This document shows positions 46 to 27,831 of a stretch of DNA of 64,000 nt, piece after piece (the first letter of the stretch is position 1; each line of letters opens with the position of its first letter). The translations under genes and the position numbers were made by a program. Location of the stretch: the NCBI GenBank assembly GCA_965200025.1, contig OZ241325.1:844674-908673 (forward strand), given 5' to 3'. The notes below the pieces were generated by a model that ran no database searches, was not told where the DNA came from, and saw nothing but the letters and a program-made list of their open reading frames with translations. The DNA comes from Bdellovibrionales bacterium. Lineage in GTDB: Bacteria; Bdellovibrionota; Bdellovibrionia; Bdellovibrionales; UBA1609.

Positions 46-824
46 GGTTTTTTAACCTCTGTTAAAAGAGAGGCAAAATTCAACGGATTTAACGAATACC
101 CCCCCACCAACAGGCCATCCAGCTCCTGAACAGAGCAAAGTTCTTTGATATTTTTGTTATTCACACTCCCCCCGTAAAGCACCCCGGGTGCAAAAGACAC
201 CAGTTTTTTTACCTCACTCCGGATAAACCGGCACATCTTTTTTATATCATGAACTTTGGCACTTAAACCACTGCCTATGGCCCATACCGGCTCATAAGCA
301 ACAAGCACTTCAAAACCCCCTCTGAAAAAAGAAAACTTTTTACTCTCTGAAAAACAAAGCGGCTTTAAAGCACAACTGAGCTGGTGGCTGACCACTTTAA
401 AAGACAGGCCTTTATCCCTCTCCCCCTGGTTTTCCCCCACGCACAACACAGGACAAAGACCATGTTTTAATAAAGACTTTACTTTTTGACAAATTAAAGT
501 GTTGTTTTCCTTAAAAAACTTTCTTCTTTCGCTATGCCCCACCAGACAAAAACAAAGCCCCATCTCTTTAAGGGTTTTAGGGGAGTTTTCCCCGGTAAAA
601 GCCCCCTGGCTTTCCGTGTAACAGTTTTGCCCCCCCAGAGTAAAATCAGAATTTTTGACCTCCTCAGAACAGGCGGTGACAGTCAAAGCCGGTACAAAAA
701 AAACAAAATGTTTGTGATCTTCCGGCAAAAGATGGGTTTTTAAGGCTTGAAGGTATTGCTTTGCCTCAGGGGGATTTTTGTGCATTTTCCAGTTGGCACA
801 CAACAAAAAAGGATGAGATATCAT
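42..824 (-). CDS. tpiA: triosephosphate isomerase
   Basis: 260-aa ORF with the TIM motifs ANWKMH, VGHSERR and YEPVWAIGSG. Confidence 0.95.
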   Translation of the reverse strand: MISHPFLLCANWKMHKNPPEAKQYLQALKTHLLPEDHKHFVFFVPALTVTACSEEVKNSDFTLGGQNCYTESQGAFTGENSPKTLKEMGLCFCLVGHSERRKFFKENNTLICQKVKSLLKHGLCPVLCVGENQGERDKGLSFKVVSHQLSCALKPLCFSESKKFSFFRGGFEVLVAYEPVWAIGSGLSAKVHDIKKMCRFIRSEVKKLVSFAPGVLYGGSVNNKNIKELCSVQELDGLLVGGYSLNPLNFASLLTEVKKP

Positions 825-985
825 TGATTTTTACTCTCATAAAGCCCTTTTTTAGCAGTTTTTTGACAAAAAATCACTCAAAAAGTGTAAATTTTACACA
901 GGGCTTGAAATACAGGTTTTTTCTGTTATAACTGGCATCGTTAATGTTTTTAGTCAGAAAATTTATTTGTGTCAAAGGAGTGGCA

Positions 986-1534
986 ATGAAAAATACCATT
1001 TTGTTTGTTTTTGTTTTTTTCTTTTCTCTGGAGGTTTTGGCTTCCGGTGATCCGGCGAGGGTTCAGCCCAACACAGCACCTTTGAGTAATCCTGCTGATG
1101 AAAGGGCAAGAGCCTCTGAAGAACTCATTGATTTTGACCCTGACACAGCTTTTGGTGCCCCTATGGAGGAAACCATGGCAGACACACAAAAACTGATGGA
1201 GGGGCAAACAGAGCAAAAAGCTCAAAAAAAACCAAATCCCGCTCATCAGGCAGGGCTTCCCGTTTATAACACAGGCTCAGAAAGGGCTTCGTGTTCTCAT
1301 CACTCCGGATGTTCCTCCCCCGTGCATTATTCCCCTTATCCCTCTTACCCGGCTTATCCTTACACTTCTTATCCTTATGCTGTTACTCCGGTTTCCAATA
1401 TTTGCTATGCGGGGCTTTCTTATTGTTACATGTCGGTACCAGCGGTGGTGGGAACCCCCTGTACCTGTTCTTTCCTTCAGTTCACCTTTTATGGCAGTTA
1501 CTGGACCACAGTACCTGGCTTTGTGGGCTATTAA
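986..1534 (+). CDS. secreted hypothetical protein with a Tyr/Pro/Cys-rich C-terminus
   Basis: Internal ATG at 986 is preceded by AAAGGAG. The signal peptide is MKNTILFVFVFFFSLEVLASG. No family recognised. Confidence 0.5.
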   Translation: MKNTILFVFVFFFSLEVLASGDPARVQPNTAPLSNPADERARASEELIDFDPDTAFGAPMEETMADTQKLMEGQTEQKAQKKPNPAHQAGLPVYNTGSERASCSHHSGCSSPVHYSPYPSYPAYPYTSYPYAVTPVSNICYAGLSYCYMSVPAVVGTPCTCSFLQFTFYGSYWTTVPGFVGY

Positions 1535-1616
1535 ACTGAAGTAAAACTTTCCCCTACTTCCACCTAAAACCATACTCTCCGGGAGTTTTGATCTTAAAAA
1601 ATTATAAAAACGCTGC

Positions 1617-2555
1617 TTAAGTTTTAGAATCGTTTTTGAGCTTTTTAATTTCCTGCTCCGACAAACCTGTTACTTCAGAAATAAAAGACAAATCTGTCTT
1701 CTTTCTCAACATCTTTAAAATCAGCTCCTGCTGGCATTCCCGGCGGCCTTTTTGAAGCCCCAGTTTTAAGCCTTTGGACCTTTCCTCATCCAATGATATC
1801 TGTAATGGTGGCATAACTCTCTCCTCCTCCTTATCAATAGCCCTTACTTCTATCTCACTCAATATCCTCCAACTAAATCCCGGGCTGTAATGACGCACAT
1901 AATCCACAGCCTTCTTTATCAACCTCATACGATCCTTGACCGACAACCTTCTGCCGATTACAAACAAGGACCTCATAACCCTCTCATTCAAATCCCATAT
2001 ATGACTCATAATATACAGAGCCGGGTAGCTTGTCAAGCTCTTTAACTTTTTTCCATTTTTGCCCAAATCCTGAAGATTCAACAACCGGCACTTAAAATTC
2101 AAGACATTTTTACCAAAACACTTCCTCAAAACCCCACTAAAATCACTCAAATACTCATGGAAGCTTAAAACCCCCCTCCACCTCTTGCTTCCATGGTAGA
2201 CCACCACGGGTATCACCGGTTCTTTTGTCTTGTCGTATATTCCTGTCTGGTAATTCAGTATCTGCCTTAAAAGACCTTCGTCCTGGTAGGATTTATGTTC
2301 CAGCAAAAACAAAATACGGGTGCTTTTTTTTGAACCACGCTTTTTCACAGAAAACAGCAGGTCCATTCTCTTCTCTTTAAACTCTTTGTCCACAAAAGAG
2401 TTAAGCTCCAGTTTTAGAGTCTTGAAGTCAAAGAGTTTAAACTCTAAAGGGGTGAGGATAAGGCGAAAAATATCCAGGCTGTAAGGGAGGTGGGAATAGA
2501 CTTCTTTAAAGAAGATGTCGTGTAGAGAGGTTTTGCGGAGTTTGTTTTGAGGCAT
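1617..2555 (-). CDS. Rpn/YhgA-like recombination-promoting nuclease (PD-(D/E)XK, Transposase_31 family)
   Basis: 312 aa. The core DLLFSV...ILFLLEHKS (D...ExK) and VVYHGSKRW are typical of the Rpn family. The C-terminal helical tail resembles that of the second copy at 37469-38542. Confidence 0.75.
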   Translation of the reverse strand: MPQNKLRKTSLHDIFFKEVYSHLPYSLDIFRLILTPLEFKLFDFKTLKLELNSFVDKEFKEKRMDLLFSVKKRGSKKSTRILFLLEHKSYQDEGLLRQILNYQTGIYDKTKEPVIPVVVYHGSKRWRGVLSFHEYLSDFSGVLRKCFGKNVLNFKCRLLNLQDLGKNGKKLKSLTSYPALYIMSHIWDLNERVMRSLFVIGRRLSVKDRMRLIKKAVDYVRHYSPGFSWRILSEIEVRAIDKEEERVMPPLQISLDEERSKGLKLGLQKGRRECQQELILKMLRKKTDLSFISEVTGLSEQEIKKLKNDSKT

Positions 2556-2896
2556 GGTTTTGTTCTTTTACCGTATGTAAAGAGGGGGTGTGAAGTTGTT
2601 TTTTCATCGTAAGGTATCAGAATGGCACACTCCCAAGCCTTGTGGCAAGAGAAAAAGCAAAGTTTTACCCCCCCCCAACCCCTGAAGATTCAGGAAAGGA
2701 AGATGGCTGTGAAAGGAAGATTTACAGGCTTTATTTTGAGTCATGGTGTGATTTTTTTTTGCTTTAATGATGATTTAAAGGGTGCTTTTTAGGTAGCAAA
2801 ATGTGCGGGTGTTCTTTGCCTGATTATTGAAACCAAACTCATGCCTCTTTAAAAGCAGGGTCAAAGGTCCAGTTTTTGTTTTTCCAACCAAAAAGC

Positions 2897-2923
2897 TTGA
2901 AAAAAAATGGGGGGGGGTAACAT
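2897..2923 (+). promoter_or_regulatory. promoter-like element TTGAAA-N15-TAACAT with a G9 tract (2909-2917) filling the spacer
   Basis: Hexamers read by eye. The downstream ATG (2933) is only 9 nt after the -10-like hexamer. The same architecture recurs at 8310-8337 and 49892-49918. Confidence 0.45.
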
Positions 2924-2932
2924 GGCTTTATT

Positions 2933-4823
2933 ATGCTAAAAACCCTGTTGTCATTGGCCTTTTTGGTTCTCTCACCCCCACAGTTTAAAGCCTTCACTCA
3001 ACCGGGTTTTTTACATTCAGACTCTCATCCACAACCACCTTGCCGATGGACTGGCTCTATCTGTCCCAATCAGAATCAGGAAGATACAGAACATTTTCTA
3101 AAAAACATCACAAATGTTTTAAGAAAAAACACTCGCTCTGGAGAAGATTTAAGAACCAGCCGTTTTCAAAAACTGTTCAAAGTGATTCATCAGGGTACAG
3201 ACCAGCAGATTTTGTCCCTCATAAACACTCTTAAAAAACACCCTTACTTTGTTACCCCTAAAATTCTTCAGGCTTTTTTTGAAAAAGTGAACAAAATAAA
3301 AAGGAACAATCTTTCTTTTTACTCTCATAAAATAATTCCTGCATTAAAATCTTTTCGAGAGTTCGAAAACTTTCTTCACACCTCTTTGCAAAGCTCAATA
3401 AAAAAACCCCGGCATCAGGAAAGAATCACCTCTCTGGCCAAAAAAGAAAACCTGGCCCGCCTGGGAGTGTTTGAAGATATTTATGGAGACAGATCAAAAG
3501 CCAAAAAACTCAAAAACAAAATCCAGACTGATATTAAGAAAACATTTGAAGTGAGTGATATGAGTAAGAGATTAAACCTCACAAGAGAAACAAATAAACT
3601 GAAAAGTGCAGCTTTGCTGGTGGGGGGGCAGCTTTCAAACAGTTTTATTTTGCCTTTTATAAAGCAATCTCTTGAAGAGACACACAAAATGTCTTTGTCA
3701 TCTGCCAATCGCAGCTTTATAAAAATGAGGAACTCTGCCATACAGGCAGCAGGTGACAGTCTTCTGAAGGCCGGCTACCTGGACAACAAATACAACACTC
3801 TTAAAACCGGGGACCTTACCAAGCTTTCAGATATTATTTTTCATGAAGGCAACTATCCTCAAACGCTCAGACCCTCCTCCGTCCAGCTGGCACGTCAGGT
3901 CGCAGAAAAAATAAAAAACACCAAAGCCAAAAAATACCTCAATGAATCCGGCCTGTTTTATGGTGTTATGCAGGCACCTTCCATTCAAGCTGCCCTGAAA
4001 AGTAATCGGAAAGGTGATTCTTCTGTATCCCGTTACAATACTCAGTTTGCCCCGGATCAGGATTTTAAACCGCGTACAACACTTGTTAAAGAGCGTCTTA
4101 AAAACCTCTTTAAAAAAGAGTCCGATGAGTTTAAGAGGCTTCAAGGCTATAAACTCCTCACTGAAGCAGGGGGCATTTGTCAGTACTTTGGCAAAAGAAG
4201 GTTCAGAAGATAAAAATGTGGATGTGCGGGTGGCCTCCATGTCTGTTGCCTCCACCCTGCCTGTTGATCAGAGTGTATCCATTCTGGAAAAAGGACTTTA
4301 TGATGAGAATAGTTTTGTGCAGGAAGAGGCTTTAAAAGGCCTGGCCAAACTGAACCTGCCTGCTGAGCAGAGTGTGTCCATTTTTCAAAAGGGGCTTTAT
4401 AACAATAACAGTCTTGTGCAGGAAGAGGCTGTAAAAGTCCTGGTCAAAAACAAAAAAAAGGAAATACTTTTCAATATATATGACAGTAATTGGGCTCCAC
4501 AGGCTGCTCACCAGGAAATCCTGAGACAGGCAGGAAATGTAAGGGGAGAGCTGGGTCTTCAGATGCTCCAAAAGGCATTTGAGCAGAGAGGTGTAGAAAG
4601 TGATATTATTGCCGTGGAAAGTGCCTCCAAAATAGGGGGACCTGAGAGTTTAAAATTCCTGATAGAAATGTATGACGCAAGTCAAAGATTATACGAAAAT
4701 GAAAGAAAGAGAAAAGTGAAGGCCGCCATTATTGATGCTATAAACCGTGTGGATGGACCACAACAAGTTAAGTCCCGGCTTTTGAAAAAAGCAATCAGGG
4801 ACAAAATCATCAGAGGGAGGTAA
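2933..4823 (+). pseudogene. secreted HEAT-repeat protein, interrupted by a single frameshift (ORFs 2933-4213 and 4014-4823)
   Basis: Signal peptide MLKTLLSLAFLVLS. The second ORF carries HEAT/PBS-lyase-like repeats (DKNVDVRVAS, DENSFVQEEALKGL, NNNSLVQEEAVKVL). The frames can be joined by losing one base at G5 4169-4173 or A4 4193-4196. Confidence 0.6.
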
Positions 4824-20046: not shown

Positions 20047-20099
20047 CACTTCCCGCTCTCTGTTGTCAAATGTGAGGGCCATAATTTTTCCAAAGCCCC
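20047..20099. repeat. direct repeat, left copy (decayed duplicate of the gmk-rpoZ spacer)
   Basis: 52/53 identical to 22939-22991. A second shared block is TAAAACTATGACT at 20105-20117 and 23016-23028. Confidence 0.95.
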
Positions 20100-20336
20100 T
20101 CCCTTAAAACTATGACTTTTAGCAATTTCTGCTTTGTAAGGGACACTATGTAATAAATACACACCCTTTTATGAAAAATATCCTGACTGCCACCAAGTAC
20201 ATTGTAATATAGCTTGCATTTTGTGAATAATGCAATGCATAAAAAGTCAATATTAAGGATTTGATTATTGTTGGTGATGAAAGTATATTGAAGGACCAAG
20301 ACGGGTAGCCAAGTACCTAAAAGGGGATTAAGTTTT

Positions 20337-20549
20337 ATGAAGTGCATTGTATGCCATAGCAAACTTACAAAGGCTGAGTACGATGAGTTGGCCCCGGAAT
20401 TTAAGCCTCATCCTGTACACAAAGAATGTTTTGATACATTTGTAAATGCAGATGAGTTTTTAGAGTTTGCCTCTGAACAGACATCTTCAAAAAAATTCTC
20501 ACCCCCTCCCGCAACACAAGCACCTCCCCCGGATCTGTCACCAAACTAA
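20337..20549 (+). CDS. small Cys/His-rich protein (possible zinc ribbon, possible controller of the island)
   Basis: 70 aa with CxxC...HxxHxxC, i.e. MKCIVCH...HPVHKEC. It is transcribed opposite to (convergent with) the nuclease/methylase genes. AAGGGG lies upstream of the ATG. Confidence 0.4.
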   Translation: MKCIVCHSKLTKAEYDELAPEFKPHPVHKECFDTFVNADEFLEFASEQTSSKKFSPPPATQAPPPDLSPN

Positions 20550-21047
20550 TATTTTGGAAGGGGATAAAGAACCTTCAGGCAAACAGTTTATAATATCCAC
20601 CTCACTTCTTTCCCCGTTCCATTTTGCAATGGTAATTTTCCTGTTTTTTCCATAATTCAATAAGTTATGTTTTTGGTCGCTATTTAAAAAAGCATTTAAG
20701 CCTGTGGTTTTCTCTTTCGGACTCAATAAAATGGCACACACAGGTTGCATAATACGAGAGTACCCAATAAGCTGGCTTAAATGTTGTAAAGTCAGTTTTT
20801 TGGTTTTACATTCCACTAAAACCAGGCCAGTTTTATTATTTTGCGACACAACAGAAAACACATCAATTTTTATATTAAAATAATGAGAATGAGTAATTTT
20901 CTTTGTAAGATTTTTCCTGATTAATATTTTGCTGATGAATTCATCGGCACCTATATATGTTTGGACAATGCTTTGTGGCTTGAGACTCCTTTTTAAATAA
21001 GCATCCAACCAGGTTTTAACGGGGTGATATAATTCCAGTTCTTTCAC
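20538..21047 (-). CDS. NucS/RecB-like PD-(D/E)XK mini-nuclease
   Basis: IDVFSVV-x9-LVLVECKTKK-LTLQHLSQLIGY gives the D...ExK...QxxxY signature. The GTG at 21047 overlaps the upstream TGA (GTGA), suggesting translational coupling. The track ORF start at 21101 is probably too long. Confidence 0.55.
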   Translation of the reverse strand: MKELELYHPVKTWLDAYLKRSLKPQSIVQTYIGADEFISKILIRKNLTKKITHSHYFNIKIDVFSVVSQNNKTGLVLVECKTKKLTLQHLSQLIGYSRIMQPVCAILLSPKEKTTGLNAFLNSDQKHNLLNYGKNRKITIAKWNGERSEVDIINCLPEGSLSPSKILVW

Positions 21048-21937
21048 TTTTTTTCTTTCTGTGTGCAACCCATGGCAATGCATATTTCTCTGAAGTTGCA
21101 AATATGTTTTCGGACTTGTGAGGGAAGTTTATCACTGTGTTCATCAGGATGCAATGGCTTTGATTTGATCCTTGGCTTTTTATCCGGCCAACAAAAGGAT
21201 GGGGTTGTTTTATTGATCTGGTTATCACGTTGGACAAACATTTCCAAAATTTTTTGTTTAAACTCCAATCCAAAACCAATACGGATAAAATGTTTTGAAT
21301 AGAATCTAATCCTATGCTCTTTAGTCCAGCTATGAGAACGGGGTCTGGTGGGGGTTCTTAAGTTAGGATGTCCCCATATTATATTGTCAACAGGAATATT
21401 TAAGCTTTCCTGTAATATCCGACATATTTGCACAGGAAGCTTCCAGTTCTCAAAAGGAATATCCAGGCAGATTCTTGTATACTTGTTCCAATCTCTGTCA
21501 CCAAATGTGGGAATGGAGCATGAATCAGCCACTCCTCTAATAAAATGCTTTTTTATATCAAGAGATGCATTCCTAACAGATTCAGGAACAAGGGCAGTTT
21601 TATAACTAAAAGTTTCCAAAGGACCCAATATATCGTATAATATATCCCATACCACAGTGTTTTTTGAAACAGGTACAATAACAGAGTACATCAGGTCATC
21701 CCGTTGTACTTTTATATCTGTTTGCAGGTATTCTTTAAGCAGTTCGGTAACACTGGTACCATCTATTGTATACTCACGACCCTTTTGAGACAGCTCGCTA
21801 ATATCACAACCAGGAGGAAGCTTAAACCTTTTGTTTTTGTACTTGAATCTTACAATTATACTTGAGTCAACAAAGTATCCTCTGGCAATACACATTCCCA
21901 AAAAATAAGAAAGCTCAGGTTTGTTTAAGGCTTGCAT
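21044..21937 (-). CDS. hypothetical protein with two degenerate LAGLIDADG-like motifs
   Basis: LSYFLGMCIARGYF (res 9-22) and KKHFIRGVADSCSIP (res 128-142) have the spacing of single-chain LAGLIDADG enzymes. Assignment is by eye only. Confidence 0.35.
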   Translation of the reverse strand: MQALNKPELSYFLGMCIARGYFVDSSIIVRFKYKNKRFKLPPGCDISELSQKGREYTIDGTSVTELLKEYLQTDIKVQRDDLMYSVIVPVSKNTVVWDILYDILGPLETFSYKTALVPESVRNASLDIKKHFIRGVADSCSIPTFGDRDWNKYTRICLDIPFENWKLPVQICRILQESLNIPVDNIIWGHPNLRTPTRPRSHSWTKEHRIRFYSKHFIRIGFGLEFKQKILEMFVQRDNQINKTTPSFCWPDKKPRIKSKPLHPDEHSDKLPSQVRKHICNFREICIAMGCTQKEKK

Positions 21938-22833
21938 TTTTTAAATATCAGTAAAAATTCATGAATTTTATTTACCCGGAAAACATAAGGGTACCCCAAA
22001 GGCCGCAAATTGTTGTAGTCCTGCTTCCTGTCCCATATAATGATGTCATCCAAAGTGTACCCAACTGAACACAAAGCCTGTGTAATATCCATATGAAGAG
22101 GATAAAACATGCTTTTTTTTCTTAAATCCATAACATTTATTATACAGTAAGCATTGGGTTTTAAAACCTTAGACACCTGATGAAATATATTTTTCATGGT
22201 GAAAAGATACTGTTTATATTCAGAAATTACACCTATGTTCTCTTTTGACAAATGATATTCTTTTTTTATTTTTCCATCCACTGTTCTTTTTTGACTTAAA
22301 ATATCCCAATAAGGTGGACTGGTAAAACATAAATCAATCGTATTATTTGGAATATATTTTCCAACATTAATGGCATTACTTTTTACCACTTGAATCTTTG
22401 ATTTTTTTTTAGTTATTGATTCAAGTTTTTTTATTCTGCTTTTGGAAATGGAAATATATTTTTTACTTATATCAAAGCCTATTCCGGTTTTATTGAGCTT
22501 ATGGCAAGCCACAAGAGTGGAACCAGATCCCACAAAAGGATCCAGAATATTTGTTTTGCGTGAATCTGTAAAAGTCTCTATGACTTTATATGCCAACTTC
22601 CAGGGAAATACCGCCGGATGTTCCAGTTTCCTCTCTTCAGTGTCTTTGGACATGCCGTTCCATATCGATACAGAGTTTTTGAGCCAGTCACTTCCATTAA
22701 GATCGTTGGCTTTATTTGTGGATTTCCTGTGTTTTTTTACAGGCAATGTATCATGATGAAACAAGTTCAATACCAAACCCCATTTTATAAAAATTAAAAT
22801 CTTCTTTAAAATTGTGCAATTATTGAGAAACAT
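21925..22833 (-). CDS. DNA methyltransferase (N4-C/N6-A family, SPPY type)
   Basis: HPAVFP and DPFVGSGST (AdoMet motif I) lie upstream of FTSPPYWD (motif IV). Confidence 0.85.
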   Translation of the reverse strand: MFLNNCTILKKILIFIKWGLVLNLFHHDTLPVKKHRKSTNKANDLNGSDWLKNSVSIWNGMSKDTEERKLEHPAVFPWKLAYKVIETFTDSRKTNILDPFVGSGSTLVACHKLNKTGIGFDISKKYISISKSRIKKLESITKKKSKIQVVKSNAINVGKYIPNNTIDLCFTSPPYWDILSQKRTVDGKIKKEYHLSKENIGVISEYKQYLFTMKNIFHQVSKVLKPNAYCIINVMDLRKKSMFYPLHMDITQALCSVGYTLDDIIIWDRKQDYNNLRPLGYPYVFRVNKIHEFLLIFKKCKP

Positions 22834-22841
22834 TGATAAGT

Positions 22842-22882
22842 AAAAAAAACAAAGCCCGACCTTGGGCTTGAATTTTTGTTTT
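22842..22882. terminator. bidirectional intrinsic terminator candidate
   Basis: A8 run, then stem AAGCCC / loop GACCTT / GGGCTT, then GAATTTTTGTTTT. It lies between gmk and the methyltransferase start. Confidence 0.5.
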
Positions 22883-22938
22883 CCACTATTCGACGAACAT
22901 GCTCTTTATAATATCTTAAAAACCACTTATAAGACCCA

Positions 22939-22991
22939 CACTTCCCGCTCTCTGTTGTCAAATATGAGGGCCATAATTTTTCCAAAGCCCC
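22939..22991. repeat. direct repeat, right copy (immediately downstream of gmk)
   Basis: 52/53 identical to 20047-20099. Confidence 0.95.
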
Positions 22992-23007
22992 CACAGCCTG
23001 CCTCTTC

Positions 23008-23619
23008 TCAATCTATAAAACTATGACTGTGGGGTTTTTTGATATACGCCTCAATGATATTTCCCAGCTGTTTTAAGGTGTGTGTCAGATTGTGGTTTAC
23101 CACCTGGTGATCAAATTCTTTGGCTTTGGCAATTTCTGCATTTACGGCAACAGAACGCTTTAAAATATCCTGTACACTTCCCTCCCGCCTTTTTTGCACA
23201 CGATCTGTCAGAGCATCCAGGGAGGGGGGCAAAATAAAAATTCTTAGACAGGTGGGGATTTTTTTTTTCACCTCATCCGCCCCCTGTGTATCCAGGTCTT
23301 TAATCACTATTTTTTTCGACTTCCAAATCCTGCTTAACTCCCCAAAAGCTGTTCCGTAATAGTGCTGATAAACACAGGCCCATTCCAAAAAAAAGTTTTT
23401 TTGCCTTAACTCTTTAAACCGCGAAGAGCTCACAAAATGGTAGTCTCTTCCACACACCTCCCCTGCCCTGGGCGGGCGTGTGGTGTAAGACACAGGGACC
23501 CTTAAGCTCTCCGTGTATTTTTTTAAAACCTTTTGAATGAGAGTGGATTTTCCCACCCCACTGGGACCACAAATCACCAAAAAACCCCCTGCCCGGTTTT
23601 TTCGCTCTGTTGTTTTCAT
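23008..23619 (-). CDS. gmk: guanylate kinase
   Basis: GPSGVGKST P-loop and TTRPPRxGE motif. Confidence 0.9.
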   Translation of the reverse strand: MKTTERKNRAGGFLVICGPSGVGKSTLIQKVLKKYTESLRVPVSYTTRPPRAGEVCGRDYHFVSSSRFKELRQKNFFLEWACVYQHYYGTAFGELSRIWKSKKIVIKDLDTQGADEVKKKIPTCLRIFILPPSLDALTDRVQKRREGSVQDILKRSVAVNAEIAKAKEFDHQVVNHNLTHTLKQLGNIIEAYIKKPHSHSFID

Positions 23620-25191: not shown

Positions 25192-27633
25192 TTAACTTAA
25201 GGGAGTGTTTAAAGCCTCCTGGGAGGAGGCTGTGGCATCCAAAACTCTGGGAGTGAGAAACAGAAGCAATTCGTTTCTGCTTTCGTCTGAGATTTTTTTT
25301 GTAAAAAACCAGTTGATAATGGGTATGTATTTGAGAAGAGGCAGAGATTCATCCGATTTGGTGACATCACTTTGGTACATACCACCTATGACAATGGTTT
25401 GCCCATTACCCACCAAAACCTTGGTGTTGGCCTCACGGGTGTTGGTGGGCCGGGCCTGAGTGGCATCATGGATAATAGGGCCGGAGAATTGTCTTCGCAT
25501 AGTCACCTGCATAAAGACAGAACCCACCGCCGTAATATTGGGTGTGACATTAAACTCAAACACCACAGGGTTACGGTTGGCCTGTGTGGTGGTACCGGCA
25601 TTGGGGGCTGTAACAGTTGCGATATCAATGCTTTCTGTGGATTGAGTGATCTGAGCCGTTTCTCCATTAAGAACCATAATTCGCGGGGCGGAAATCACCC
25701 GGGCCATTCCCTCATTCTCAGAAATACCCAGTACAGCATCCAGCTGGCCCACAGGGGCAAAACCAATATTGAGGTTGGAGTTTAATGTCCTTCCCCCTGT
25801 AGCCCCACCCTGGCTTCCCCCCTGTTGACTGGCGGGAAAAGCGGTAATATCCCCACCCACACTCAATCCCATGGAATCCTTACCAAAAAGAGGAAAATCA
25901 TTGAGACTCCTTCCCACAAACTCAAGATTTAGCCCAAAGTTTTTTACAAAAGTTTCTCTGGCCTCCACAATTTTGGCCTCAATCATCACCTGCTGGGGGG
26001 ACTTGTCCAGTTTTTCAATCAAAGGGTTTAACCTTTCAATGGCAGAGGCCACATCTGTAACAATTAAAGAGTTGGTCTTTGTGTCCTGACTGACTTTCCC
26101 CCTCCCCTGAGTTAAGAAAGGTCTGATTTGGTTAACAATCTCCCCCACCTTGGCATAAACCACAGGGATAACCTTTACCTCCAAAGGTTCCAGTATTTTT
26201 TTACTCTGAAGCAGCTGCTTCAGTTCATTTTGCCTGGCCTGAAAAGTACTCTTGGTCATAATGCGAAGGACATTGCCCTCCCGCGAGTAGGCCAGGCCCT
26301 TGGTTTTCAACACAGTGACCAAAGCCTGATCCCAGGGAACATTTCTGAGTTTAAGATTTAAGCTTCCCTGTACATTGTCATCCACCACCAGGTTCAGTCC
26401 GGTTTGCTCAGAAATATAATACAGTATTTCCTTGAGATCCATATTCTTAAAATGAAGACTGATGGACCGGCCTGTAAATTTGTATTTGTTCATCAAAAAA
26501 TCCTCATAAGTGGTACTCTGGGGACCAACAAACATGTTTCCCTGTACCCCTCCCCCCGGCTCTGGTTCTGTGTCGTCAGAAAACACATCCCCTTCATCTG
26601 CCAAAAGCAGGTCTTTTTGCCGGGACTTTGGAGAAGTAAAAACCACAAGCCCTCCCCCGGCTTCAGAACTCACAGAGGGCCAGCTCCCCTCCTCTCTCAT
26701 CTGTATAACAACTCTTACTGTTGTGGGGTCTTTTTGATCCGCTTTTAAAAAAGCCATGCGGGTGTTAAACTCCTTCATAACAAAAGGCCATTTTAAACTT
26801 TTGGACAATACCGCATTGGACATTTCTATAATGAATTGTTTTTGTTCTTCGTTTTTTCGAACCTGATACAAAATCTCATCACTTCCTGCGATATGGATTT
26901 TGTCTTCACCGGCCACATAACGAATACTGTTAATGCTCACCTGTGGGCTTTCCTGCAAAACATCCCCCCCTGTGGCCTGAGCCAGGGCAGCATCCACCTC
27001 ATCATCCTCTTCTTCAGGAGACTCTGTTGCCTCTTCACCGGCAACACTGCCTTCTGCCTGTGCAGAGGAAAGCTCCTGGGCAGGAAGCTCACCGGCCTCC
27101 CCTTCTGTTTCCCCCGCCACAGAGGCCACTTCTTTTTGCACACCCTCCTCCTGCCGCACTGCCTCTTCCTCTTCCAGCTCGGCTATCTCCTCCTCTTCAT
27201 CTATAAAGACCTCCTCTGCTGCTTCCCCCTCTTCAGGGTCAAGCTCTGCCAGGGCTGAATCCCCCCCTTCCCCGGCTTCTGCCTGCTGCTCCCCGGGAAC
27301 TGAACCTTCCTGTGTGTTATCAGGAGAGGGAGAAACAGAAGCTTCCTCAAAACTTTCCCCCCTACCTTCTGCATCCTCCAAAAAATCTCTTTCAAAATCC
27401 TCAGAATCCACAAATTCATTTTCCAAATCCGTGCTTTCACCCTCTTCCTCCTCCTGTCTTTCCGCACCAATCACATCGCCCGCATCATCGGCCTCCTCAG
27501 GGAAAGACTCCTCCCCATCCATAAAACTCTCCTCCCCCTCATCTGCATAAAAAGCCTCCTGCCCCGTCTGACAGGACACAAAAAACACAAAACACAAAAA
27601 AACCTGAAAGCCTTTTTTTATACTGTCCTTCAT
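25192..27633 (-). CDS. pilQ: type IV pilus secretin PilQ with acidic low-complexity N-terminal region
   Basis: C-terminal secretin domain (VLVGNGQTIVIGG, LFLTPRV). Start moved to ATG 27633 (GGAGGG RBS, lipobox FFVSC). Confidence 0.85.
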   Translation of the reverse strand: MKDSIKKGFQVFLCFVFFVSCQTGQEAFYADEGEESFMDGEESFPEEADDAGDVIGAERQEEEEGESTDLENEFVDSEDFERDFLEDAEGRGESFEEASVSPSPDNTQEGSVPGEQQAEAGEGGDSALAELDPEEGEAAEEVFIDEEEEIAELEEEEAVRQEEGVQKEVASVAGETEGEAGELPAQELSSAQAEGSVAGEEATESPEEEDDEVDAALAQATGGDVLQESPQVSINSIRYVAGEDKIHIAGSDEILYQVRKNEEQKQFIIEMSNAVLSKSLKWPFVMKEFNTRMAFLKADQKDPTTVRVVIQMREEGSWPSVSSEAGGGLVVFTSPKSRQKDLLLADEGDVFSDDTEPEPGGGVQGNMFVGPQSTTYEDFLMNKYKFTGRSISLHFKNMDLKEILYYISEQTGLNLVVDDNVQGSLNLKLRNVPWDQALVTVLKTKGLAYSREGNVLRIMTKSTFQARQNELKQLLQSKKILEPLEVKVIPVVYAKVGEIVNQIRPFLTQGRGKVSQDTKTNSLIVTDVASAIERLNPLIEKLDKSPQQVMIEAKIVEARETFVKNFGLNLEFVGRSLNDFPLFGKDSMGLSVGGDITAFPASQQGGSQGGATGGRTLNSNLNIGFAPVGQLDAVLGISENEGMARVISAPRIMVLNGETAQITQSTESIDIATVTAPNAGTTTQANRNPVVFEFNVTPNITAVGSVFMQVTMRRQFSGPIIHDATQARPTNTREANTKVLVGNGQTIVIGGMYQSDVTKSDESLPLLKYIPIINWFFTKKISDESRNELLLFLTPRVLDATASSQEALNTPLS

Positions 27634-27831
27634 GGTGAAAAACCCTCCGATGAAATATCCTGTGCCGAACTTCAAATTTTTAAAACCACTAAACCTGCTT
27701 CACTTCCCTTTTTAAATTGTATGATACTTTTTAAAAAAAACACCAATTTATTCTGTAACAAGCTGCGGCTTAAAATGTAACACACTCCGTTAAATACAAA
27801 ATTTTTCTTAACAAATATGTTACGCAATACA

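Follow-up and report, generated by a model that had tools for sequence, protein, structure and literature searches.

In FokI and in the two-subunit enzymes BspD6I, BtsI and BsrDI, the recognition module stands apart from a non-specific PD-(D/E)XK cleavage module, and the folds known for restriction endonucleases are PD-(D/E)XK, HNH, GIY-YIG, PLD and half-pipe. A 2012 review of homing-endonuclease relatives links restriction enzymes to GIY-YIG, HNH and PD-(D/E)XK and lists for LAGLIDADG only maturases, WhiA and similar regulators (PMC3384342). For a LAGLIDADG enzyme to be active, the penultimate residue of both motifs has to be acidic; in WhiA, which is proven not to be a nuclease, these two positions are occupied by Arg and Gly (PMC3384342). 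Catalytically inactive I-SceI has also been joined, by engineering, to PvuII or FokI (PMC3258161). Here we analyse three overlapping minus-strand genes (M, L and N) at 20538-22833 of a 64,000-nucleotide (nt) stretch of contig OZ241325.1 from a Bdellovibrionales bacterium; this stretch is referred to as the window, and all coordinates refer to it. We consider it reasonably likely that these genes encode a Type II restriction-modification (R-M) system that is mobile, with the DNA read by a domesticated and catalytically dead LAGLIDADG protein (L) and cleaved by a separate PD-(D/E)XK protein (N). That the L-N pair represents a new class of restriction enzyme, with a dead LAGLIDADG scaffold serving purely for specificity and a separate or fused PD-(D/E)XK domain making the cut, has in our estimation slightly better than even chances. 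The three genes are as follows.

21925-22833, minus strand: M, DNA methyltransferase of the N6_N4_Mtase family, 302 amino acids
21044-21937, minus strand: L, predicted LAGLIDADG-fold protein (AlphaFold2 and Foldseek), 297 amino acids
20538-21047, minus strand: N, predicted PD-(D/E)XK nuclease, 169 amino acids, GTG start

An earlier description of this DNA, made from the letters alone (the sequence-only reading), had noted three co-directional, overlapping genes, and the coordinates and all of the motif strings that it quoted are present. The order is M-L-N, with an overlap of 13 nt between M and L (AAAAAATGCAAGCCTTAA) and a GTGA overlap between L and N, in which the GTG start of N lies on the TGA of L. 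The genes are not chance open reading frames, since a first homologue search returned 16 relatives of L and 12 of N, with best E-values of 1e-166 and 1e-80, respectively. The start proposed for N was also right as far as homologues can tell: because these are 163-178 amino acids long, they support GTG 21047 over TTG 21101, and the resulting 169-residue product has an identical entry in NCBI/ENA (P0018).

Predicted folds of the three products

The methyltransferase M carries HPAVFP and DPFVGSGST (motif I) ahead of FTSPPYWD (motif IV), an order that had been described as permuted for enzymes of this kind. M matches Pfam PF01555 (N6_N4_Mtase) at 2.8e-32 and the PADLOC MTase_II models at 1e-44 to 1e-45. 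Its best PDB sequence match is 8s9n, a solved N4-cytosine methyltransferase, against which its halves are swapped: residues 67-135 of the query align with residues 189-256 of the chain, and residues 134-287 with residues 15-154. By this alignment M is a circular permutation, and to that extent the description stands; however, the PADLOC Type II methyltransferase model PDLC03363 is colinear with M over its whole length, and the motif order, on this comparison, is therefore an already known subtype and not itself new. Twelve orthologues of M share the motifs TSPPYW, LDPFxGxGST and HPAxFP without variation; this alignment and the PF01555 match indicate intact S-adenosylmethionine-binding and catalytic motifs, while the TSPPYW form of motif IV and the match to 8s9n suggest that the modification is N4-methylcytosine (m4C). 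With the annotated ATG at 22833, M has about 21 residues for which no orthologue has a counterpart. Because these begin about 21 codons later, the real start of M is probably an in-frame TTG near 22770, which lines up with the orthologue starts.

In L, two helix-like motifs had been recognized, LSYFLGMCIARGYF (residues 9-22) and KKHFIRGVADSCSIP (residues 129-143), and compared with the paired motifs of single-chain LAGLIDADG endonucleases. L has no match in Pfam, NCBIfam, PADLOC, PHROGs or a PDB sequence search, and in these resources it is thus not a known self-sufficient restriction enzyme; nor do the Pfam LAGLIDADG_1, LAGLIDADG_2, LAGLIDADG_3 and WhiA profiles match it at E <= 1. The first search with L gave a family of 17 proteins, mostly from Bdellovibrionales metagenome-assembled genomes, and an AlphaFold2 model built on this alignment reached a predicted local distance difference test score (pLDDT) of 83.4 and a predicted template-modelling score (pTM) of 0.86. 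By its DSSP pattern and its Foldseek matches the model has the LAGLIDADG fold, as had been proposed: all of the top 50 PDB matches are LAGLIDADG proteins (probability 0.97-1.00, E-values of 1e-6 to 1e-3), headed by the TliVMA intein endonuclease (1e-6) and the WhiA N-domain 3hyj (1e-5), then by PI-SceI, I-DmoI, I-SceI, I-AniI and others. A 290-residue relative of L from [Ruminococcus] torques has independently been named 'DOD-type homing endonuclease domain-containing protein' in UniRef.

The loss of acidic residues from the motifs of L, also remarked upon from the sequence, extends to the whole family. When the profile of 38 diverse L members was compared with the PDB, PI-PfuI was matched at an E-value of 0.069, with firGlaDvag placed on FIAGLFDAEG (motif 2); the catalytic Glu of the PI-PfuI FDAEG string faces Ala or Cys in the L family. 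The penultimate position is Arg19 in motif 1 of L (Arg, Lys or Gly in the 38 members) and Cys140 in motif 2 (Cys, Ala or Ser), so that the acid expected of an active LAGLIDADG nuclease is absent from both motifs. With this fold and these replacements, L as modelled is a pseudo-dimeric LAGLIDADG protein but lacks what defines an active LAGLIDADG nuclease. The Gly at motif position 3 is conserved and the Asp at position 6 of motif 2 (D138) is retained. The second half of L contains an invariant WGHPNLR...KEH(R/Q)IR hairpin, followed by a conserved tail, HPxE...LRGKHF...IC...GC; H278, C286 and C291 of this tail, together with C172, are conserved and could bind zinc. The protein is basic (isoelectric point (pI) 9.4).

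The product of the third gene, N, carries the strings IDVFSVV, LVLVECKTKK and QHLSQLIGY, from which a nuclease of the NucS/DUF91/Shedu type had been proposed. Searches of Pfam, NCBIfam, PADLOC and PHROGs gave nothing significant (only HSDR_N_2 at 0.016 and NsnC at 0.015), and neither did the PDB sequence search. The AlphaFold2 model of N (pLDDT 88.4, pTM 0.87) has an alpha-beta-beta-beta-alpha-beta core, in which E3 lies in helix 1, D62 immediately precedes strand 63-69, and E79-x-K81 is found where strand 72-80 ends. From Bdellovibrionota to Firmicutes, E3, D62, E79-x-K81 and Q92 do not vary, and Y96 also belongs to the motif set. The core fold and the placement of the Asp and of ExK are those of the PD-(D/E)XK superfamily, and the Foldseek matches of the model, namely PaqCI, AF1548, NucS, EcoT38I, BamHI and MspJI, are mutually consistent. 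The presence of a nuclease fold in this protein of about 170 residues is thus borne out. The likeness to NucS, DUF91 and Shedu holds at the level of the superfamily and not below it: no Pfam NucS (DUF91), Shedu (DUF4263) or Vsr match was obtained at E <= 1, none for NucS or Shedu in NCBIfam or PADLOC, and the Foldseek alignment with NucS 2vld (E-value 5e-3) comprises only 70 columns. N is basic as well (pI 9.7), and its model consists of the catalytic core only, without extra recognition elements.

Linkage and partners of the L-N pair

A profile of the L alignment was searched against 1.84 billion representatives at 50% identity, and it matched 284 of them at E <= 1e-3 and 180 at E <= 1e-10. 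The best 150 of the 284 representatives were sorted into classes:

47 of the best 150: stand-alone L
24 of the best 150: L-N fusions of about 540-557 amino acids
21 of the best 150: L with a C-terminal domain of about 170 amino acids unrelated to N
5 of the best 150: giants of 991-1299 amino acids with L at the C-terminus
52 of the best 150: fragments

Among these 150, the L-N fusions amount to about a quarter of the full-length representatives. One such fusion was checked by hhalign, which placed the N profile on residues 402-556 of P0056 (probability 99.1, E-value 7e-19). When the two genes are separate they also keep company, and the co-occurrence on which the sequence-only reading depended is seen in all loci tested. 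The order M-L-N is found in 14 of the 14 distinct related loci with enough flanking sequence, with a methyltransferase related to that of the window at E <= 1e-57; these loci belong to Bdellovibrionota, Planctomycetota (Pirellulales and Gemmatales), Chloroflexota (with Thermoflexus among them), Armatimonadota and one unclassified bacterium (L011), and the module as a whole spans five or more phyla. In two loci truncated by the contig end, from Ignavibacteriaceae (L009) and Ardenticatenia (L012), L followed by N is all that is visible. The pairwise identities of M, L and N, calculated over 12 loci, correlate with r = 0.87-0.93.

Behind genes for L-N fusions, and overlapping them by 4-14 nt, lies a gene for a divergent N paralogue of 165 amino acids, referred to here as N':

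L020, 2857-3354, plus strand: N'
L021, 2204-2701, plus strand: N'

Its motif reads D...NRExK instead of D...ExK, the Glu of helix 1 is absent, and the Gln has become a Glu. The occurrence of a second N paralogue in the fused systems hints that N domains work in pairs, and N' may serve heterodimerization as a partner that is inactive or has a shifted site. That N' is simply inactive was considered and rejected, as its ExK may be shifted by two residues (NRExK).

L is also joined to domains other than N. By hhalign, the C-terminal domain of about 170 residues in the L variants of 440-482 amino acids (P0130-P0179) is unrelated to N, and it has no Pfam match; likewise, no Pfam match was found across the N-terminal regions of 700-1000 residues in the giant proteins P0058, P0063-P0065 and P0110. 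Judging from these domain combinations, L behaves as a portable module.

The methyltransferases found with the pair are of several kinds. Two small Lactiplantibacillus plantarum plasmids and a Lachnospiraceae phage encode a 700-residue protein in which an EcoRI-like N6-methyladenine (m6A) methyltransferase is fused to a C5 methyltransferase; an L-like and an N-like gene come after it, and both are annotated 'hypothetical protein':

L022, L. plantarum P9 plasmid p9 (NZ_CP060181.1), 690-4316: methyltransferase fusion and L-N pair
L023, phage PV036410.1, 609-4110: methyltransferase fusion and L-N pair

The gene for the fused L-N protein P0056 has two methyltransferase genes next to it, one of the N6_N4 and one of the Eco57I/TaqI_C type. 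A pair of methyltransferases, or a double one, is typical of asymmetric (Type IIS-like) sites. In another arrangement (L026), a 1299-residue protein has an L domain at its end, an orthologous methyltransferase comes next, and the third gene only begins an N-like domain before the contig ends. A nearly identical L protein, WP_004845618.1 ([Ruminococcus] torques / [Bacteroides] pectinophilus), is present on >1000 contigs, and the L family is therefore common in the human gut. Cultured carriers exist, namely [Ruminococcus] torques and the L. plantarum strains with these plasmids. The L-N pair is thus associated with different methyltransferase families, as expected of an R-M system, in a unit that is horizontally mobile (plasmid, phage, island).

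The island in the window

The module of the window lies in a short island, the features of which are listed below.

20118-22938, unstranded: inserted island of about 2.8 kb between rpoZ and gmk, holding the small gene, N, L and M
20047-20117, unstranded: left target-duplication copy, left over from the 3' end of gmk and the spacer downstream of it, with a 53-nt exact-register repeat and then a 13-nt continuation after a 19-nt deletion
22939-23028, unstranded: right target-duplication copy, overlapping the gmk 3' end
23008-23619, minus strand: gmk
22852-22869, unstranded: GC hairpin resembling a terminator, with T runs on both strands, located between the M start and the right repeat (consensus scan only)
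20337-20549, plus strand: small acidic protein of 70 amino acids with a CxxC...HxxC pattern, inside the repeat-bounded island

The island splits a gmk-rpoZ-spoT cluster, and its GC content is 34.8% versus 43.7% in the flanks. A 53-nt direct repeat (20047-20099 and 22939-22991, 98% identity) bounds it; in the repeat search and pairwise alignment the duplication reaches about 90 nt with a 19-nt indel and takes in the 3' end of gmk. Low-GC inserts between repeats that overlap the 3' end of a gene have been described as 'insertion with long target duplication', a signature of R-M mobility (PMC2853133), and the island of the window matches this pattern. Related modules are found elsewhere in unrelated neighbourhoods, and one of them adjoins an integrase. 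Degraded or rearranged copies occur in L008, L017 and L019 (Candidatus Fervidibacter sacchari NZ_CP130454.1): L is split or truncated (in two pieces in the Gemmatales copy, L017), a methyltransferase is reduced to a fragment, and N is duplicated in L008. Such copies fit the frequent decay that R-M systems undergo. The hairpin at 22852-22869 would shield the module from read-through out of gmk. A promoter-like site is present at 22810-22782 on the minus strand, just upstream of the TTG near 22770.

The small gene and N converge, with an overlap of 12 nt at the 3' end of N. Neither this gene nor the direct repeats around the island figured in the sequence-only reading. Homologues occupy the same place and orientation in L001/L004, L003, L005 and L006 (E-values of 1e-12 to 1e-22):

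L001, 7377-7583, minus strand: small-gene homologue
L003, 7371-7595, minus strand: small-gene homologue
L005, 6375-6569, minus strand: small-gene homologue
L006, 2297-2611, minus strand: small-gene homologue

These homologues are 64-104 amino acids long, share a CxxC...PVHxxCF motif and accompany all Bdellovibrionota copies of the module; among the related loci, none was found in copies outside Bdellovibrionota. The small protein has no family match in Pfam, NCBIfam, PADLOC or PHROGs, and it may act as a regulator or an inhibitor, or its gene may be a source of antisense control. Elsewhere in the window, an 827-residue secretin-like protein (25192-27675, minus strand) has a very acidic, low-complexity N-terminal stretch of about 200 residues that is rich in Glu, Asp and Gly.

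Proposed mechanism, alternatives and described relatives

As in Type II R-M systems, the window holds an intact methyltransferase gene next to a co-inherited gene for a nuclease fold with an intact active site. The division of labour put forward in the sequence-only reading, with recognition by L and cleavage by N, is a well-supported inference. In the scheme that we propose, M would protect host DNA by methylating a short target, probably on the N4 of a cytosine; L would bind the unmethylated target via its beta-sheet saddle as the sequence-reading subunit, with the invariant WGHPNLR...KEH(R/Q)IR hairpin placed on this saddle; and N, which is without an evident recognition module, would be recruited by L, probably dimerize and cut both strands at or near the site. 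Translational coupling through the 13-nt and GTGA overlaps would keep the three products in proportion. Such a layout would resemble a FokI-type Type IIS enzyme in which the linker between the modules has been severed, the window presenting the split form of a layout that is fused elsewhere. The analysis shows the genes, their modelled folds, which motifs are lost or kept, the co-occurrence and the fusions of L and N, their pairing with different methyltransferases and the mobility of the module; from these we infer the specific binding of DNA by L, the role of N as the only catalytic centre, the contact between L and N, the position of cleavage and m4C as the modification.

Several observations weigh against this scheme. 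LAGLIDADG saddles normally read 14-22 base pairs, and the main difficulty is that a site of this length would be too rare for defence and too long for a 300-residue methyltransferase to mask; the scheme therefore requires of L a target far shorter than those that its relatives read. The single methyltransferase of the window system would be unusual for an asymmetric site. The LAGLIDADG domain of WhiA may not bind DNA (PMC3384342). The Foldseek E-values of N are weak (3e-3 to 1e-1), and the template-modelling scores of L are modest (0.33-0.46, normalized to the query). Lastly, the invariant polar residues D138, H190, E207, H208 and K227 of L could form a non-canonical active site.

These residues, which lie outside the canonical positions, are the starting point for an unlikely alternative: an R-M system with a catalytic L, in which a non-canonical centre (e.g. 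D138/H190/E207/H208) would nick one strand and N the other. The heterodimeric Type IIT/IIS enzymes BspD6I, BtsI and BsrDI work in this manner, one strand being cut by the large subunit, which carries the recognition function, and the other by the small catalytic subunit; moreover, D138 is kept at position 6 of motif 2, and the N' gene behind L-N fusions suggests two different nuclease units per site. However, both canonical metal ligands are lost throughout the family, as in the non-nuclease WhiA, and the WGHPN and KEH residues belong to the beta-hairpin with which homing endonucleases touch DNA, and base or backbone contacts explain their conservation equally well. The window system, for its part, has one N only, and this N could homodimerize.

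Quite improbable, in our view, is an arrangement in which N alone is a small homodimeric Type IIP enzyme, and L is an operon regulator (controller-like) or a scaffold and not the specificity determinant. WhiA does provide a case of a dead LAGLIDADG protein acting as a transcription factor, PD-(D/E)XK restriction enzymes of about 170-200 residues exist, and BamHI-like folds are among the matches of N; but fusion to a nuclease domain in about a quarter of the full-length representatives is unexpected for a transcription factor, L is conserved and co-evolves as strongly as N, and the N model is a catalytic core to which no recognition elements have been added. Very unlikely is a Vsr- or EndoMS-like repair or maintenance module, or a homing selfish nuclease with a long target, with M as a neighbour or protective accessory: the weak resemblance of N to NucS/EndoMS, the typical homing role of LAGLIDADG proteins and the clear mobility of the module would suit it, but the insertion sites differ in every genome and thus reveal no conserved homing site, the pair is found with m4C-type, m6A and 5-methylcytosine (m5C) methyltransferases, which fits restriction and not the repair of m5C deamination, the genes overlap and co-evolve with M, and a Pfam NucS or Vsr signature is absent.

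Taken as an R-M system in which L recognizes and N cleaves, the locus is of a known kind, and it is the L-N architecture that looks undescribed among the libraries and literature searched. No LAGLIDADG-based restriction enzyme was found in that literature, the reviews searched list none, neither L nor N has sequence similarity to any PADLOC restriction-enzyme model, and RefSeq calls the copies from cultured organisms hypothetical. The earlier remark that this composition matches no described R-M or defence type therefore holds for every family library and paper searched. If the proposed scheme is true, this would be the first use of LAGLIDADG in restriction-modification and the second independent domestication of this fold of selfish elements, and it would establish a new connection between homing endonucleases and R-M systems. 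It may then be possible to reprogramme the recognition surface of L, and the site that it reads may be longer or asymmetric.

Among the described systems, the nearest precedents are WhiA, the heteromeric or Type IIS restriction enzymes and the engineered fusions of inactive I-SceI with a nuclease. Like N, the small subunit of Type IIS and heteromeric Type II enzymes (about 170-190 residues) is a catalytic domain only, and, like relatives of the L-N pair, these enzymes have two methyltransferases or fused double ones, as for asymmetric sites; unlike theirs, the recognition module L has the LAGLIDADG fold, apparently without an active site of its own. NucS/EndoMS and Shedu share with N the core fold and the order of the catalytic residues, whereas N is without the N-terminal domain of NucS. 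WhiA/DUF199 is, like L, a bacterial single-chain LAGLIDADG protein devoid of the catalytic acids, with Arg at the first position, and recruited to a host function. In contrast to WhiA, L has a Cys/His-rich tail instead of the helix-turn-helix at the C-terminus, does not match Pfam LAGLIDADG_WhiA, and resides in a mobile R-M operon, where it is often fused to a nuclease domain. The LAGLIDADG homing endonucleases (I-DmoI, I-SceI, PI-SceI, PI-PfuI, TliVMA) have in common with L the fold, the pair of motif helices, the Gly at position 3 and the Asp at position 6 of motif 2; L differs from them in the absence of the penultimate acids, in its location outside any intron or intein and in its pairing with a methyltransferase and a separate nuclease. 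In the engineered fusions of inactive I-SceI, as in the natural L-N fusions of about 540 residues, a dead LAGLIDADG binder is combined with a PD-(D/E)XK cleavage module. The L-N system would be their natural counterpart, a LAGLIDADG binder with a detachable cleavage domain; unlike them, it occurs in nature, where it is ancient and widespread, it is accompanied by a cognate methyltransferase, and its version in the window is divided between two polypeptides.

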